DNA of 7,142 nt. Origin: Candidatus Heimdallarchaeota archaeon (GTDB lineage: Archaea; Asgardarchaeota; Heimdallarchaeia; Hodarchaeales; Hodarchaeaceae). Below, piece after piece: positions 2 to 7,031 of the stretch (position 1 is the stretch's first letter; each line of letters starts with the position of its first letter). A program made the position numbers and the translations under genes. The DNA lies in the NCBI GenBank assembly GCA_020348965.1, contig CP070760.1, positions 2,130,363 to 2,137,504 of the forward strand. The letters run 5' to 3'. The notes under the pieces were generated by a model, which saw only the letters and a program-made list of their open reading frames with translations, was not told the DNA's origin and did not search any database.

Positions 2-337
2 CTAGCTCACACCTTTGCAACAGAATCACAAGTTGAACCTGCATTAGTAGCTGGGTTATTCTCTGCTATTACTTCTTTCGCAAAAGAAGCTGTTAGGAGT
101 GAACAATTGTTAAAGACCATAGATCACGGTGATGTGGTGTTAACAATAGAATATGCCAAATGGGTTTTTGCAGCGATTTTTGCAGACAGTACTTCAACTG
201 AACTCCGGAAACAGCTAAGTGAATTTCTGACAGACTTTGAAACGCGCCATGCTAAGACTCTTCCCACTTGGTTAGGGGATCTCGATGTGTTTCAAGGAGA
301 CTTGTCAATTATTGATGACATTTTCACTAGCAGATAA
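2..337 (+). CDS. 3' end of a gene that opens beyond the window start. It encodes a longin/roadblock-like alpha/beta domain (motif EPALVAGLFSAITSF). Function unknown.
   Basis: Frame 2 is open from nt 2 to the TAA at 335-337. The TTG at 107 used by the ORF track is probably internal. The translation LAHTFATESQVEPALVAGLFSAITSFAKEAV...FLTDFETRHAKTLPTWLGDLDVF aligns by eye with aa ~538-645 of the neighbouring 890-aa protein (IDPQLVSGFLSAISGLFSEL...VFETDFHKKLEDFVGVLDAF). Confidence 0.6.
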   Translation, partial: LAHTFATESQVEPALVAGLFSAITSFAKEAVRSEQLLKTIDHGDVVLTIEYAKWVFAAIFADSTSTELRKQLSEFLTDFETRHAKTLPTWLGDLDVFQGDLSIIDDIFTSR

Positions 338-412: not shown

Positions 413-3085
413 TCAATTCCCTTCTCCCATAATGAGAAGATAATCTCCAGTTTGTAATTGTGCAATTGAACACACTAAGGTGGTGAGGTCTGTTTTTAGG
501 GTTACTTTCACACCATTCAAAGGATTTGTGGTCTTATGATGTAGGGTAAAACCTTTTGAGGTCATTAATCTTGCCCACCGTGATAACTCCGATTCTGAAT
601 AAGTTATAGTTCTTATTGATTTTACTTTAATTCTAGAAGCCGATTCAAATAACAAGTTACGTTCCAGAATATCTGATTTAAGAGAATCAGGTAAAGGACT
701 TGTTTGTATATCAATTAGCAGCTCGTTAAACCAGTTAGTGTCGATATCTATGAGTTCTTCAGTTTCTTCATGAGAAAGAAAATCTAAGTCTTCAGTTGTT
801 GGATCGGCTGCAGCTGGTTCTATCCCTAATTCTTCAGGGATAGTTTCTTCAAATTCTTCGCTCCCAAGATCAATTATTGGTTTATGGGTGATGAAAGGAG
901 GTAATGTTCGATTTCCATCAGTGAGAACGAGAATCCCCTCCCGTAGATAGAAGATAATGGCCTCTGTTATTTCACGATAACTATATTCAGAGTCAAAAAG
1001 ACATTGATTGACAATCTCCTCTACAAAAAGGCCTTCAGTTATCGCGAGCTGATCAATTTGACCACTAATGACCTTATACAACGTTGGAAAAGGAATCTCT
1101 TGTTTATAAGCGCGATTAATCTGAATAGGTGTAATTAATGAAAGACCTAGATGATAATCAAGAAGTCCAATGGCAGGACGAAAGGCATCAAGAACACCAA
1201 CAAAATCTTCGAGTTTCTTGTGAAAATCTGTTTCAAAAACGTAGGAAAAGTTTCTTAATCTCTGTTTTAAGGTGTTTAAATATTTAGGAGTCCGATCGAG
1301 AATAATAGCTGTAACAGAGTGGTTCCCCTCCACCGTTACAATCTTAAAAGCACGATCTCCAATCTCTTCAGTGAAAATTCGTAAAATTGTACGTTTTTGA
1401 ACGAGGTCGTTTTTAAGTTCACTAAAAAGCCCTGAAATCGCGCTAAGAAATCCTGAAACAAGTTGAGGATCGATTTTTAGCATTGTGATTCCAAGTTCGA
1501 AAATGCAAATACCAGTTTTCTTATGAAGAATTAATATATGTTTACATGCTAGTAAATTAGTTAGATCTTGATGACTATATGGTGCAACTTCAATAGAAGG
1601 AGGTTCGATGTCCTTCTGTTCAATATCGGTTGAAATATCTGGTTCAATTTCCGAAGGAGTAGGAACTTCTTTTAATATAATTTTACCTAATTGAGGTTGA
1701 TATGTGGGGATGTTTTCAGGCATCTCATCTTCTTGAGGATCGATATGTTTAGACAAACGTGGACGGACACGAATCTTAATTGGTCGATGGCTTCCACCAT
1801 GTAATCCGACAATTAGAGCTTCTCCACGGACAAGATGAGGCAATATTGACACCGTTTCAGTACTTATTCCCTCCATCAGTCGAATTTTCGTAATATCCTT
1901 GTCAGATCTTATTCTGAGTGCGATCAATGTGTTCATATTTGCTACAATGTTATCAGGTAAATCACCAGGTCGTTGGGAGATAAGGATTTCATGAATACCA
2001 AATTTTCTTCCTTCCCGTGCAATACGAGGGAGGATCTCGTTTGTGTTGGCAAATCGATGTGCTTCCTCGATAACAAGTATGATTTCATGTTCTCGTGCAA
2101 GCTCTCCCTGAAGTTTTTTCTCAAAAACCTGAGTAAGGATTTCATTTACTAACAGATTTCGTTTCCTTTCATCAATAAATTGGTCTAATCGGATAATCGA
2201 AATTCGTCCAGGCTGTATTAAGGCATCTAAATCAAGTTCTTTTTCAAATAATCTCAAGTTTTCCAAGGAATAGATCTTTGAAATCAGATTTTCTCGTGTT
2301 GAACTATGGATGTCTGAATCTCGAATTAAAGACATCAAATCGTCCAGTAAGAGTGGCTCCTTTATGATATTCAATAAAGAATTTTCTTGCGCGGCGGTTA
2401 AACTGATTAATCTACGTAGTTTTGGCAGATTAAAACGGGTTCCTAGTCCTAATGACTCTTTTTCAAAAACTAAAACATTCTCCAGAAATCCACGAGGAGA
2501 ATAATCCTCAAAATTCAGGTATTCAATCTCTGGGCCATCATTCTGCTGTGTTAATCCCCAATACTCATTGTGAGTATCAAATAACATGACTGCAGCTGAT
2601 TTAAACTTCATTAGAATCTCTTCTAGCAACACAGCTACAGTATATGATTTTCCTGCTCCAGTGCTAGCAACACAGAGTACATGTCGTTCTAGAAAATCAG
2701 GTGAGATAAGAAAGGGGTCAGTTTGATTGTTGAAGGTTATTATGTCCCCTAGATAAATACCATTGTCACCACGATATGAAATAATCTTTGAAACTAGTCC
2801 TTCTGGAGGATGTCTGATTTGGGCTTCTGGAGATACGGGGAAGCGACAGGGGGAGAGTGCGAAATCTTTGAGATCAATTTCCCCAAGAATAATTGCTGTT
2901 CCTTTGATTTCCTCACCCTTCGTTTGAATCAAGTTAGAGACTTGAGCTAAGTATTGCTTTTGAGGGGTTTTTTTCAAATCATTAATTAAAATAAAATCTT
3001 GTTCATTAATAGACGTTTCAGCTGCAACAATACGAAATGAAATCTCTGATGTTGAGGATTTAATTACTTCCATTGTTTGAGACAA
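413..3085 (-). CDS. Multidomain HerA/DUF87-family (FtsK-HerA superfamily) P-loop ATPase. It is fused to a longin/roadblock-like domain, a possible winged-helix module and an uncharacterised C-terminal domain.
   Basis: Uninterrupted 890-codon ORF. Walker A is VASTGAGKSYT (aa 139-149, nt ~2645-2668). The HerA-typical MLFDTHNEY follows. Walker B is EIILVIEEAHRF (nt ~2057-2083), and the HerA-like REGRKFGIHEILISQRPGDLPDNIVANMNTLIALRI is present. The N-terminal ~130 aa resemble a HAS-barrel. The track start at 3085 is TTG; the in-frame ATG at 3073 (MEVIKSS...) is the more likely start. Confidence 0.85.
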   Translation of the reverse strand: MSQTMEVIKSSTSEISFRIVAAETSINEQDFILINDLKKTPQKQYLAQVSNLIQTKGEEIKGTAIILGEIDLKDFALSPCRFPVSPEAQIRHPPEGLVSKIISYRGDNGIYLGDIITFNNQTDPFLISPDFLERHVLCVASTGAGKSYTVAVLLEEILMKFKSAAVMLFDTHNEYWGLTQQNDGPEIEYLNFEDYSPRGFLENVLVFEKESLGLGTRFNLPKLRRLISLTAAQENSLLNIIKEPLLLDDLMSLIRDSDIHSSTRENLISKIYSLENLRLFEKELDLDALIQPGRISIIRLDQFIDERKRNLLVNEILTQVFEKKLQGELAREHEIILVIEEAHRFANTNEILPRIAREGRKFGIHEILISQRPGDLPDNIVANMNTLIALRIRSDKDITKIRLMEGISTETVSILPHLVRGEALIVGLHGGSHRPIKIRVRPRLSKHIDPQEDEMPENIPTYQPQLGKIILKEVPTPSEIEPDISTDIEQKDIEPPSIEVAPYSHQDLTNLLACKHILILHKKTGICIFELGITMLKIDPQLVSGFLSAISGLFSELKNDLVQKRTILRIFTEEIGDRAFKIVTVEGNHSVTAIILDRTPKYLNTLKQRLRNFSYVFETDFHKKLEDFVGVLDAFRPAIGLLDYHLGLSLITPIQINRAYKQEIPFPTLYKVISGQIDQLAITEGLFVEEIVNQCLFDSEYSYREITEAIIFYLREGILVLTDGNRTLPPFITHKPIIDLGSEEFEETIPEELGIEPAAADPTTEDLDFLSHEETEELIDIDTNWFNELLIDIQTSPLPDSLKSDILERNLLFESASRIKVKSIRTITYSESELSRWARLMTSKGFTLHHKTTNPLNGVKVTLKTDLTTLVCSIAQLQTGDYLLIMGEGN
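1136..1573 (-). other. Internal longin/roadblock-like domain (aa ~505-650) of the HerA-like protein, paralogous to the C-terminus of the 2..337 ORF.
   Basis: The DPQLVSGFLSAI motif was verified at nt 1436-1471 by reverse-complement translation. The hydrophobic pattern read by eye (ILILHKKTGICIFEL / DPQLVSGFLSAISGLFSEL / ILRIF..FKIVTVEG..VTAIILD / YLNTLKQRLRNFSYVFE) suggests a beta-beta-alpha-beta-beta-beta-alpha order. The exact family name was not determined. Confidence 0.5.
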
Positions 3086-3265: not shown

Positions 3266-4279
3266 ATGAAATCACCTAATTCCTTTTTAGGTGGAGAGTA
3301 CCCTATAATGGGAAGTACGTCTGATAATAACAAATTTGATATGGTTATCATTGGTGCTGGACCAGCAGGTATGGCGGCTGCTATTTATGGGTCACGTATG
3401 GGTTGGAAAACAATAGTACTCGATAAAGAAGCAGTTGGAGGGTTAGCAGCTACCACTCCCATTATAGAAAACTATCCCGGTTTTTCAGAAATTACTGGTC
3501 TCGAGTTTGCAGAGAGATTAAGAAAACAGGCGGAAAAATTTGGAGCAGAGATCCGAGAATTGGTAGAAGTGACGGAAGTAAAAGCTGATCAGGTTCCACT
3601 CGAAGTAGTCACGACCACGGGTAATTTCATCGCAAAAGTTGTCATTATTGCGACTGGGACAGCTCATCGTCACTTAAATATTCCAGGAGAAGAAGAATTT
3701 GAAGGAAAGGGAGTTTCTTATTGTGCTACGTGTGATGGTCCATTATACAAGGCTAAAAAAGTTGCAGTTGTAGGAGGTGGAAACTCAGCTGTTACAGAGG
3801 CTCTGTATCTGAATAATGTGGTCCGAGAAGTTCACTTAATTCACCGTCGGGATCGATTACGAGCTGATGAATCACTTCAGAGAGAAATTCTCAACAATTC
3901 AAATGTTAATTTCGTCTGGGACTCAGTTATAGAAGAAATTCAGGGTAGCGAAACAGGGGGAGTCAAAAAAATCTCAATAAAGAATGTGAAAACTGAAGAA
4001 ATCAGTTCTCTTCGTGTAAAAGCGGTTTTTGTTGCCATTGGTATATCTCCTAACAATGAATTGGCCAAAAAACTTGGAGTTGAACTTACCGAAGAAGGGT
4101 TAATCAAGGTTGATAGTAAGCAACGTACCAGTATTCCCCGAATTTATGCCTGTGGTGACATTACTCCTGGTCAAGGACAGATCTCAGTCGCAGTAGGAGA
4201 AGGGACAACTGCTGCAATCTCGGCTTTCCTTGATATGAAAGGTGGGGATTGGTATGGGGAAGAAGTAAGTAATGGTTGA
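3266..4279 (+). CDS. trxB: Thioredoxin-disulfide reductase, low-molecular-weight NADPH-type TrxR.
   Basis: FAD motif DMVIIGAGPAGMAAAIYGSR. Redox-active CATC at nt 3722-3733 (SYCATCDG). NAD(P)H motif VAVVGGGNSAVTEALYL followed by HRRDRLRA. C-terminal GDITPG...AVGEGTTAA. The start is ambiguous. ATG 3266 lies ~25 nt after a TATA-like box, implying a leaderless transcript. ATG 3308 (MGSTSDNNKFDMVIIG) follows AGGTGGAG at 3289-3296 and gives a more typical N-terminal length. Confidence 0.93.
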   Translation: MKSPNSFLGGEYPIMGSTSDNNKFDMVIIGAGPAGMAAAIYGSRMGWKTIVLDKEAVGGLAATTPIIENYPGFSEITGLEFAERLRKQAEKFGAEIRELVEVTEVKADQVPLEVVTTTGNFIAKVVIIATGTAHRHLNIPGEEEFEGKGVSYCATCDGPLYKAKKVAVVGGGNSAVTEALYLNNVVREVHLIHRRDRLRADESLQREILNNSNVNFVWDSVIEEIQGSETGGVKKISIKNVKTEEISSLRVKAVFVAIGISPNNELAKKLGVELTEEGLIKVDSKQRTSIPRIYACGDITPGQGQISVAVGEGTTAAISAFLDMKGGDWYGEEVSNG

Positions 4280-4791
4280 TAGTAATATTGGACCACACAC
4301 TACCATCGCATTCCGTTGCCATAGATAGAGTATCAGCTCATTTCAGTGCTGCTCACGCTTTAAAAACAAGTCAATACGAAGAGGGTCTCCACGGTCACAA
4401 TTATCAAGTTGAAATGGAAATCGGGGGAAAGATGGATACTGAAGATCTTGTCGTTGACTTTGTATTCTTGGAGGATCTCCTGCAACAAATTCTTTCACAA
4501 TGGGATCATTATGTCCTCATGCCAATGAATAATACATATGTGACACTCTCCGAGAATGACGATAATCTCGAAATTCAGTATGGAAACCGTTTTTATTCCA
4601 TTCCAAAGAGGGAGATCAAGCTGCTAAACTGCGTAAATGTTACAACGGAAGCATTGTCTCGCTTATTGGGAGAGAAAATTCGAGCTCAGTTAAAAAAGGA
4701 GAATTTATGGGATAGGATCCAGAGTATTAGAATAACAATTTGGGAAACATCTTGTTACCGCGCTACTTATTCCATTGGCTCCACTTCTTAA
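4276..4791 (+). CDS. COG0720 / 6-pyruvoyl-tetrahydropterin synthase (PTPS/QueD) family protein lacking the catalytic Cys. Candidate PTPS-III/VI-type enzyme forming 6-hydroxymethyl-dihydropterin.
   Basis: Family signature FSAAHAL...EEGLHGHNYQVEMEIGG (Zn-binding His residues), DLVVDF, WDHYVL and TTEALSRLLGEKI. The position of the QueD Cys (Cx3HGH) holds Glu (E35-E36-G-L-HGH). There is no ATG. The ORF starts at TTG 4276 (or TTG 4288) and overlaps the trxB stop as TTGA. Confidence 0.82.
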   Translation: MIVILDHTLPSHSVAIDRVSAHFSAAHALKTSQYEEGLHGHNYQVEMEIGGKMDTEDLVVDFVFLEDLLQQILSQWDHYVLMPMNNTYVTLSENDDNLEIQYGNRFYSIPKREIKLLNCVNVTTEALSRLLGEKIRAQLKKENLWDRIQSIRITIWETSCYRATYSIGSTS

Positions 4792-5575
4792 TAAAACAAG
4801 TCAATTTAACTTTAGGAAATCCAGAAATTGACTGTCCCTGACAAGTTAGATTAAAACGAAGTCCTTTATGTTGGGAATGATAAGATGCTAACAATTTACG
4901 TGCGATCTTGAATTTTTCAAGCTTTTTCCTTTTTGATTTTTTTATGGGTGAATCTAAAGTACTATATCGACCAATGATATACCCAAAATCAAAACCAATT
5001 AGTCCAATCAATGGAGATTGAAAATGAAAGGCCAAAAAAATTGCACGATCCCCATCTGTAAACCCACCAAAATTTAGAAGTACTTGGCCTGGTTCACATT
5101 GTGTGGTTCCCCATACGTAGTTATTGGAAATTATTTCCGAATTTTGAGTAATAAACCGAGAAATCTGCTGTTTATTGTCACCGTGAGCATGAATTAATGT
5201 TAAGGCTCCATTATTGATGGCCCATCTAATCGATTTCCAATCACCATCCAGATCAGTGACAACTATTGATGGGACAATATTTTCATTTCGTAGAAATGTT
5301 GTAGCACCATCAACAGCGATTGAGCGAAGATTGGACATAATCTCAGTAGAAAAAAGTGTTGATACATCTTCCTCCAAAGAGGGGCCAGCTCCTGCAATAA
5401 TCACTGGTTCTTGAAGAATTGCTTTTAATTTTTGGAGTATTTTTTCTTTTTTAATTGGCATTAACTCGATTAAAAACTCCTTCAATAACTGTGCTGATCG
5501 TTTATCTGCTTCTGTGTTAAAACCTAATTGTTGCATGATTTGAAAATACTCATTCTTCCAGTCTTGCCAATTCAT
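4763..5575 (-). CDS. mptE: MptE-like (DUF115 family) 6-hydroxymethyl-7,8-dihydropterin diphosphokinase.
   Basis: 270-codon ORF with ATG at 5575-5573 and TAG at 4765-4763. Motifs recalled from the DUF115/MptE family: VIIAGAGPSL, AVDGAT...VPSIVVTDLDGD, LIHAHGDN, GGFTDGDRAIFLA and GLIGFDFG. The assignment is from memory of family motifs, not a search. Confidence 0.75.
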   Translation of the reverse strand: MNWQDWKNEYFQIMQQLGFNTEADKRSAQLLKEFLIELMPIKKEKILQKLKAILQEPVIIAGAGPSLEEDVSTLFSTEIMSNLRSIAVDGATTFLRNENIVPSIVVTDLDGDWKSIRWAINNGALTLIHAHGDNKQQISRFITQNSEIISNNYVWGTTQCEPGQVLLNFGGFTDGDRAIFLAFHFQSPLIGLIGFDFGYIIGRYSTLDSPIKKSKRKKLEKFKIARKLLASYHSQHKGLRFNLTCQGQSISGFPKVKLTCFIKKWSQWNK

Positions 5576-5709: not shown

Positions 5710-5776
5710 GGCTCTTGAAAGCGCTCATCTTGGTTTTTAGTATTACTAATAACAACAAGACGCCACCAACATGTGA

Positions 5777-5795
5777 GATTCTGCCGGAAGTTAAG
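5777..5795 (+). other. Leader-side strand of a bulge-helix-bulge (BHB)-like processing motif at the 5' boundary of the permuted 5S.
   Basis: GAUUCUG (5777-5783) pairs with CAGGGUC (5911-5917): 7 bp, 2 G.U. CCGG (5784-5787) pairs with CCGG (5904-5907) as a 4-bp central helix. AAG (5788-5790) is unpaired. GUU (5790-5792) can pair with AAC (5901-5903), so the inner helix is weak and this site is relaxed. Confidence 0.55.
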
Positions 5796-5909
5796 TTAGG
5801 CTCCGTTTCGATCTGTACTGTCGTGCGCGAGCCAACGGGAACATCGAAAAGCTGAGTATTGCTCGGCCAAAGGGCCTGAGATACACCCGGTCTCATTCCG
5901 AACCCGGAA
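5790..5909 (+). rRNA. rrf: 5S rRNA gene with circularly permuted gene order. The 3' half (helix II 3' strand, helices V/IV, loop E) lies at 5790-5856, a capping pentaloop at 5857-5861, and the 5' half (helix I 5' strand, loop A, helix II, helix III/loop C) at 5862-5909.
   Basis: G+C-rich island in AT-rich DNA. 5883-5909 reads ACACCCGGUCUCAUUCCGAACCCGGAA, the universal helix III/loop C. 5790-5849 reads GUUAAGUUAGGCUCCGUUUCGAUCUGUACUGUCGUGCGCGAGCCAACGGGAACAUCGAAA, a close match to the remembered archaeal helix V/loop E/helix IV (GUACUG..GUGCGCGAGCC..GGGAA). All helices pair across the permuted order: helix I 5851-5856/5862-5867 (6 bp), helix II 5872-5879/5796-5803 (8 bp, 2 G.U), helix III 5887-5890/5904-5907, helix V 5806-5812/5843-5849 (7 bp). 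Confidence 0.85.
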
Positions 5910-5917
5910 ACAGGGTC
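5901..5917 (+). other. Trailer-side strand of the BHB-like motif at the 3' boundary of the permuted 5S.
   Basis: A 3-nt bulge AAA (5908-5910) lies exactly between the 4-bp CCGG/CCGG helix and the 7-bp outer helix. CCGGAA is directly repeated at 5784-5789 and 5904-5909, spaced 120 nt apart. Confidence 0.55.
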
Positions 5918-5936
5918 CCCTTGTTATTAGGCGTAA

Positions 5937-6119: not shown

Positions 6120-7031
6120 ATGGTATTTTCTACAATCGCTCAAAGTTACTTTGATGAATTTCCATTTCGGCGGGCCGATCACCGAAAAACGTCTACAGAC
6201 TTTTATTTCCTGTCGCATGCACACTCTGATCATACTTCAGGTCTTCGGTTAAGTTTATCTGATCCTGATGCAATCATTGTTTGTTCTAAGGAAACATCAG
6301 CAGTCATTAAAGTTCTTTTTGGAATTCCTAAGGAGAAATGCCTGATTATCAGCCCTAATCAATCCCTTGATTTTGATAAATATACTGTTCATGCATTAGA
6401 TGCCAACCACTGCTTGGGCAGTTTAATGTTTGTAATTGAATCAAAAAAAGGCCTAAAGGAAGTTTATACCGGGGATTTCAGGTTGGGCAAGCCGATTCTT
6501 GATGAGCTAAATCTAATTCAGGGAGCAAATCATATGTGGCTTGACTATACGTATGGAACCAACGATATATTCAAATTTCCCTCTCGTGAAGAAATGATTT
6601 CAGAAATGATCTCTTTAATCTTATCAGAAGACAATTATCCTTCGAGAGATATCTGGATTGCTGCTTATCAGGTTGGTAAAGAACTTCTTCTAAAAACAAT
6701 AAGTGAGGCCTTGAAAGTTAAAATTTGGGCTTCAGATGTTAAAGTAAGAATCTATAAAGAAATTGGTGGAGAATGGGATATTTTCACTAATGACACAGAT
6801 TCGGGGGTGTTCGTTGGAAGTCGTAGAATGGTGGAAAGATTACACGGTATTAATAAGGATGGCCAAACGAGAATGATAGATGCTTTACGCATCTCACCAA
6901 CAGGTTGGTCGGCACGATTACGTAAGAAACGTTTGGATGTGCATTTCTTTCCTTACTCTGATCATTGTTCGTATTCAGAGGTTCATGAATTCATCAAAAT
7001 CGTTAAGGCAAAAAATCTCACGAAAATCTAA
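6120..7031 (+). CDS. SNM1/PSO2/Artemis-like (DRMBL-type beta-CASP) metallo-beta-lactamase-fold nuclease, compact 303-aa form.
   Basis: Motif series typical of the SNM1 clade: FDEFPF...DFYFLSHAHSDHTSGL (HxHxDH), DANHCLGSLMF, YTGDFR, WLDYTYG...FPSREEMI, YQVGKELLL and C-terminal FPYSDHCSYSEVHEFI (DRMBL PYSEHSS-like). The strong SD AAGGAGGA at 6107-6114 lies 5 nt before the ATG. The protein ends about where beta-CASP motif C would be expected, so that motif is not visible. Confidence 0.82.
   Translation: MVFSTIAQSYFDEFPFRRADHRKTSTDFYFLSHAHSDHTSGLRLSLSDPDAIIVCSKETSAVIKVLFGIPKEKCLIISPNQSLDFDKYTVHALDANHCLGSLMFVIESKKGLKEVYTGDFRLGKPILDELNLIQGANHMWLDYTYGTNDIFKFPSREEMISEMISLILSEDNYPSRDIWIAAYQVGKELLLKTISEALKVKIWASDVKVRIYKEIGGEWDIFTNDTDSGVFVGSRRMVERLHGINKDGQTRMIDALRISPTGWSARLRKKRLDVHFFPYSDHCSYSEVHEFIKIVKAKNLTKI

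Follow-up and report, generated by a model that had tools for sequence, protein, structure and literature searches.

A HerA-family ATPase with a longin-winged-helix tail in Hodarchaeales, and the exchange of its motor

What is a longin domain doing at the end of a HerA-type ATPase, and is such a protein real? The question arises from a 7142-bp stretch of DNA (the window), which is an entire contig of a metagenome-assembled genome that is 70.7% complete and whose contigs were joined by 100-N spacers. One open frame at 413..3085 (-) encodes 890 aa from a TTG codon, or 886 aa from the ATG at 3073, the start used by homologues. The original prediction, that this frame fuses a HerA-type ATPase to a longin-like domain and further C-terminal modules, is confirmed. 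In the AF2 model (pLDDT 75) a beta-barrel at the N-terminus precedes the RecA core; a longin domain, a winged-helix (wH)-like domain of three helices and a folded C-terminal domain (CTD) come after it, and two acidic linkers are disordered. The layout recurs in about 50 full-length homologues of 850-894 aa, drawn from independent assemblies and 38-84% identical over aa 500-890. Agreement across so many assemblies rules out that two genes were joined by a frameshift or a misassembly, and the linker regions are also tiled by contigs from other runs. We also reject the idea that the family already has a name: NCBI calls the homologues only 'ATP-binding protein', and a literature search of partial coverage on HerA, longin and Asgard found no paper describing the fusion.

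The HerA-longin-wH-CTD fusion is real and, among the genomes searched, confined to the order Hodarchaeales. A CTD profile finds one copy per genome in 21/21 genomes of the genus and a motor-less form in one of the two genomes of a sister family, with no match in the other 278 Asgard genomes searched; a broader profile returned motor-only or cassette-only matches and no fusion in other Heimdallarchaeia orders. The gene is single-copy and vertically conserved, and both of its halves are strongly conserved in all 21 genomes of the genus. A wider distribution, as the NCBI labels 'Thorarchaeota', 'Hermodarchaeota' and 'Promethearchaeota' would imply, was rejected, since the coordinates match GTDB genomes of the same genus (L023=G102, L011=G139, L009=G211). 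The names of homologues also place the window in Hodarchaeales. The fusion is a core gene of the order, and its product joins a HerA-family ATPase, all of whose catalytic motifs are intact, to a longin-wH-CTD cassette on a flexible linker.

The motor begins with a short HAS-type beta-barrel (aa 5-105; 2771..3073 (-)), which AF2 strands and paralogue alignment place at ~30 aa shorter than that of the NurA-linked HerA of the same genome. The HerA/DUF87 ATPase core follows (aa 106-450; 1736..2770 (-)), with Walker A at 2645-2668 (-) and Walker B at 2057-2071 (-). Its assignment comes from a DUF87 match to aa 125-320 (E 6e-18, above the cut-off), from fold matches, the best in Foldseek being the archaeal HerAs 9x1m and 4d2i, and from motif conservation: Walker A K146, R134, D170/H172, Walker B E341, R360/K361 and Q371/P373 are kept in 47-48 of 48 homologues. 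The sequence features of the FtsK-HerA superfamily and DUF87 are there (P-loop core, Walker A/B, arginine finger, conserved Gln), and the complete HerA motif set originally read in the first ~445 aa, behind a HAS-barrel-like N-terminus, is borne out. By analogy, the ATPase is predicted to form a hexameric ATP-driven ring, from whose C-terminal face six cassettes would extend. The HerA of the HerA-NurA complex (S. solfataricus 4d2i, T. kodakarensis 9x1m) gives the best sequence and fold matches and shares the HAS barrel and RecA-like core, Walker A/B, the QRP motif and both arginines (R142 and R381 equivalents). However, the fusion has no nurA, mre11 or rad50 linkage, its HAS barrel and K363 loop are shorter, and it has an additional 440-aa C-terminal cassette.

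Residue K363 of S. solfataricus HerA interacts with DNA (PMC5715905). When the K363 and K420 equivalents are placed by alignment to that protein, the loop after Walker B that corresponds to K363 measures 11 aa in 47/47 homologues with the same motor (type A, below), against 17-19 in NurA-type HerAs; it is 6 aa shorter than in S. solfataricus HerA and has no K or R in 35 of the 47. Canonical dsDNA end resection by the fusion is unlikely. The basic residues of the pore-facing, K420-equivalent helix (K396, K400, R402) are invariant in homologues, which is compatible with a DNA or other nucleic-acid substrate. NurA is absent from the window, as first noted. The original suggestion was to look for small GTPase, NurA and nuclease genes just outside it; among the conserved neighbours within 8 kb at 21 related loci, neither a small GTPase nor NurA nor Mre11/Rad50 could be recognised. 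Two further HerA genes are present in the genome (G000). Both of its nurA genes lie immediately next to these, one to each, and one of the two HerA genes also adjoins Mre11-like and Rad50-like ORFs, judged by motifs. The HAS barrel of HerA is required for NurA binding (PMC3326311). Against the NCBIfam HerA equivalogs NF040819 and NF040937 the fusion scores 115.5 and 85.6, where the cut-offs are 970 and 800.

Beyond the ATPase, a linker (aa 451-503; 1577..1735 (-)) is acidic, Pro-rich and, in its middle part, poorly conserved; it is disordered in the AF2 model (pLDDT < 50), in agreement with the linker originally placed at aa ~450-505. The longin domain (aa ~504-652; 1130..1576 (-)) is modelled as two strands, a helix, three strands and two helices, and its best structural matches are longins, so that of the two identities first offered for aa 505-650 the longin stands and roadblock/LC7, a fold with a long N-terminal helix and a single C-terminal one, is ruled out. 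It is conserved to the same degree as the ATPase core, has no Pfam longin match and is only 5-20% identical to known longins. It thereby differs from Sec22b, Ykt6, VAMP7, TRAPPC4/sedlin, AP sigma and the Lokiarchaeal roadblock-longin 8yqg, and also in its attachment to an ATPase and in the wH that comes after it. Longin is a fold used by eukaryotes in membrane trafficking, and we know of no eukaryotic protein with the ATPase-longin-wH layout. NPRL2 has a longin and then a winged-helix region, and in this order of domains the NPRL2/NPRL3-like longin proteins of GATOR1/SEA may resemble the cassette. As the fusion is restricted to a single order and no eukaryotic counterpart is known to us, it probably arose as an invention of this lineage and did not give rise to eukaryotic machinery. 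An 'NPRL2-like longin' is a frequent fusion partner in Asgard archaea (10.1101/2020.10.19.343400).

Where a possible winged helix was seen at aa ~660-725 there is indeed a wH-like domain (aa ~653-730; 896..1129 (-)), modelled with three helices and three short strands at pLDDT ~90. It has Atlas TM scores of 0.57-0.77 to small domains of diverse proteins and no Pfam HTH match, and it co-occurs with longin in many other Asgard-type proteins. Since it is net acidic (mean charge -5.6 across homologues), it is unlikely to bind DNA. The second linker (aa 731-781; 743..895 (-)) is acidic as anticipated, unconserved and disordered, and the CTD (aa 782-890; 416..742 (-)) is, again as anticipated, a separate domain, folded in the model as three helices and a four-stranded meander. 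The CTD is seen only with the longin-wH-CTD cassette or, weakly, with type-B motors. Its Atlas TM scores to DUF3568, START-like and DUF3710 models are 0.45-0.53, fold searches are dominated by longin, and there is no sign of a new fold. Matches of cassette profiles to Cas2 and CdiI (Pfam and PDB, sequence level) were set aside as weak, and nothing else useful was returned.

In divergent homologues the same cassette is carried by different motors. Type A, with a HAS barrel, is found in the genus of the window and in P0060 and P0061; type B, from another DUF87 subfamily and without the barrel, in P0052, P0059, P0065, P0066 and P0069; type C in one partial sequence, P0062. On the ATPase tree the fused motors form three clades, a single grouping being rejected (p-AU 5.5e-5), and under a mixture model types A and B as one group are also rejected (p-AU 4e-8); long-branch or distant rows were left out of these trees (7 in the first; 10, plus 4 redundant type-A rows, in the mixture-model tree). 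The type-A motor is a clade of its own, apart from NurA-linked HerAs (support 100/97). The cassette tree mixes motor types, with A and B each non-monophyletic (p-AU 2.9e-4 and 1e-5), a result that rests on ~25% identity and is less secure, and motor-less cassettes appear at about three places on it.

The clearest case is locus L084, whose gene order is that of the window: MptE-PTPS-TrxB-fusion, then the convergent membrane protein. Between the two loci identity is 68% for TrxB, 73% for the C-terminus of the membrane protein and, over 392 aa, 37.5% for the cassette, whereas the motors align only in two short patches of 27-30%. The L084 motor shares 62% identity with its type-B counterpart in P0065, and yet the cassettes of these two are only 26.5% alike. 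L084 is one contig, and we think an assembly chimera unlikely, because GC3 is similar throughout the gene (0.20 and 0.19) and type-B fusions are present in four further independent assemblies. These comparisons show that the cassette is the conserved unit and that its motor has been exchanged between HerA subfamilies or lost. The exchange of motors is a new result. In the sister family, two type-B motors have a CTD-like domain at their C-terminal end but no longin-wH (E 3e-6 and 2e-4, database size 1000; L090:928-2673 (-) and L092:1706-3514 (+)), hinting that the CTD originally arrived with a type-B motor. G265 also has a motor-less longin-wH-CTD gene (L079), and one could speculate that it co-assembles with a type-B ATPase via the CTD.

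Convergent to the fusion, at 2..337 (+), lies the C-terminal longin of an 11-12-TM membrane protein that is cut by the contig end (full length at L008:10729-13377 (-)) and has no Pfam match. Its longin is homologous to that of the fusion (hhalign 98.4%), but about four other longins encoded in the same genome score as well against it. Downstream of the fusion the membrane gene is present at 20/21 genus loci, next to it at 18 and with one gene in between at 2, and at 5/5 type-B loci, and convergent adjacency holds in 25 of the 28 fused loci with flanking DNA; it was found at neither of the two loci of the second type-A lineage (P0060, P0061) and at none of five motor-less cassette loci, some of these contigs being short. 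The protein occurs in 89 of 301 Asgard genomes, usually in single copy; searches of the other Heimdallarchaeia families and of one family of 76 genomes did not find it. Because 66 of those genomes lie outside Hodarchaeales, and 13 loci there have no HerA within ~8 kb, it does not need the fusion. The adjacency may also be inherited gene order, since the housekeeping MptE and PTPS genes persist nearby in deep lineages and the whole block is syntenic; in the window, ordinary housekeeping genes (thioredoxin reductase-like, PTPS/QueD-like, MptE-like) occupy 3266-5575. A predicted complex of the two longins from the organism of L008 scored 0.02 and weighs neither way. A functional link, with the membrane protein as candidate partner, is suggestive only. 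Further along, at L008:13684-18623 (-), conserved genes encode a membrane-anchored HTH_20 protein and two Pfam-less proteins of ~550-600 aa, each of which has a hydrophobic segment at either end.

Most of the best 150 relatives of the fusion's longin form the C-terminal end of a large membrane protein, immediately behind a TM helix, and the closest ones serve for the most part as the cytoplasmic tail of a large protein that crosses the membrane once. A large family, P0071-P0204, consists of surface proteins of 1000-3000 aa with a signal peptide, a single TM helix and a cytoplasmic longin(-wH) tail, and looks like a receptor-type architecture. In P0107 a small GTPase is fused to a related longin-wH, and at L088:2175-4906 the motor-less cassette P0070 is followed by two convergent small GTPase genes.

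Taken together, the comparisons suggest that the longin tail is a docking adaptor. The best explanation overall, which we hold tentatively and at somewhat less than an even chance, is that the ring is docked by its cassette on another protein, the likeliest partner being the longin tail of a membrane protein. The longin-wH part would replace NurA as the targeting element and bring the HerA ring to a cellular site, probably the cytoplasmic longin tails of membrane proteins, through longin-longin pairing, with the convergent multi-pass protein as one candidate; the docked ring would then pump or remodel a polymer. We favour docking because the fused motors fall in three clades while the cassette tree mixes motor types, because L084 keeps gene order and cassette with a type-B motor, because the genome has two other, NurA-adjacent HerA genes, and because the K363 loop is shortened and mostly free of K and R; replacement of NurA is favoured because type-B motors lack the barrel that NurA binding needs. 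Membrane tails are the favoured site because most of the best longin relatives sit there and because the membrane gene follows nearly all fusions but no motor-less cassette. We count against docking the persistence of motor-less cassettes, which makes coupling to a motor non-obligatory, together with the wide occurrence of the membrane protein, the missing neighbour of P0060 and P0061, a gene order that may simply be inherited, a neighbouring longin no closer than its paralogues, the invariant pore basics, the single contig of L084 and the partial type C. The motor swaps lend weight to the original notion of a recruited motor, which is plausible. A bolder version is doubtful: a membrane-docked ring motor, no longer a DNA-repair enzyme, whose longin-wH would pair with longin tails of membrane or surface proteins while an interchangeable HerA drives cargo or complexes.

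Asgard longins are usually read as small-GTPase platforms, and here the longin might act in a GEF/GAP-like manner, with a GTPase switching or recruiting the motor. Longin and roadblock dimers do bind small GTPases (PMC10933270), and P0107, P0070 and P0061 (two genes from a small GTPase) point the same way, but none was recognised in the conserved neighbourhood of the 21 genus loci, and such genes are so numerous in Asgard genomes (43 motif-matching short ORFs here, in a crude screen) that an occasional adjacency is expected. We consider this reading unlikely; the original interpretation is partly supported, its longin and wH-like calls standing, whereas the roadblock alternative falls and a GTPase-regulatory role finds little direct support. 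Could the fusion instead be a third repair or recombination HerA, translocating dsDNA with NurA or another nuclease in trans while the wH reads DNA? No catalytic motif is damaged, the nearest experimental structures belong to HerAs that translocate DNA, the K420-equivalent helix keeps its basic residues, type A has a HAS barrel, and a MutS-like ATPase and a metallo-beta-lactamase (window 6120-7031 (+), a profile match with a weak DRMBL hit) share the syntenic block. The shortened K363 loop, the acidic wH, a HAS barrel that type A has only in short form and type B lacks, the two NurA-linked HerAs already in the genome and the separate type-A clade make this quite unlikely in our judgement. The MutS-like protein (735 aa, HhH + MutS_V ATPase, L008:1694-3901 (-)) adjoins the metallo-beta-lactamase in 11 loci.

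A Ced/TraD-like transport machine, with the 11-12-TM neighbour as channel and the fusion ATPase as dedicated DNA or protein pump, would account for an adjacency that persists across motor types and for homologous longins on both proteins. The HAS-less motors resemble coupling ATPases (weak CedD/TraD matches), and the crenarchaeal Ced DNA import ATPases CedB and CedD are likewise HerA-family motors with a partner other than NurA. We regard it as improbable, as the membrane protein is widespread without the fusion and has no Pfam match, the genes are convergent and form no operon, and CedD and CedB scores are far below cut-off (CedD 65.9 against 600). The fusion ATPase also has no TM helix. Incidental fusion, in which ATPase genes were several times taken up from next door by the gene of a scaffold cassette with no functional coupling, would fit the scattered origins of motor-less cassettes and the extensive shuffling of longin domains in Asgard archaea (10.1101/2020.10.19.343400); it is very improbable, given that all three captured motors are HerA-family and that both halves are so strongly conserved in the genus. 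Defence HerAs (Sir2-HerA, DUF4297-HerA) also work with a partner other than NurA, but the fusion is far below their family cut-offs and has no defence partner; an anti-phage system was rejected, the neighbours being housekeeping genes, the gene single-copy in 21/21 genomes and the PADLOC matches covering the motor only.

A motor-bearing longin cassette that survives motor replacement at the same locus points to the targeting of a force-generating ATPase. The cassette is a small, soluble, testable adaptor, and the locus a case of in-place domain displacement in a core gene. Were docking at the membrane true, a longin would direct the recruitment of a mechanochemical motor in a prokaryote, and in a lineage for which closeness to eukaryotes has been proposed.

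The window also holds a circularly permuted 5S rRNA gene at 5775-5920 (+), with a predicted mature RNA at ~5790-5909. Rfam matches its 3' half first and its 5' half second, and a short hairpin connects what are natively the two ends. An ordinary 5S rRNA was not found in the five genomes examined. The flanks can pair into a bulge-helix-bulge, from which cutting and joining would give a 120-nt 5S (alignment read by eye), and the permuted gene is conserved in 19/20 genomes of the genus.
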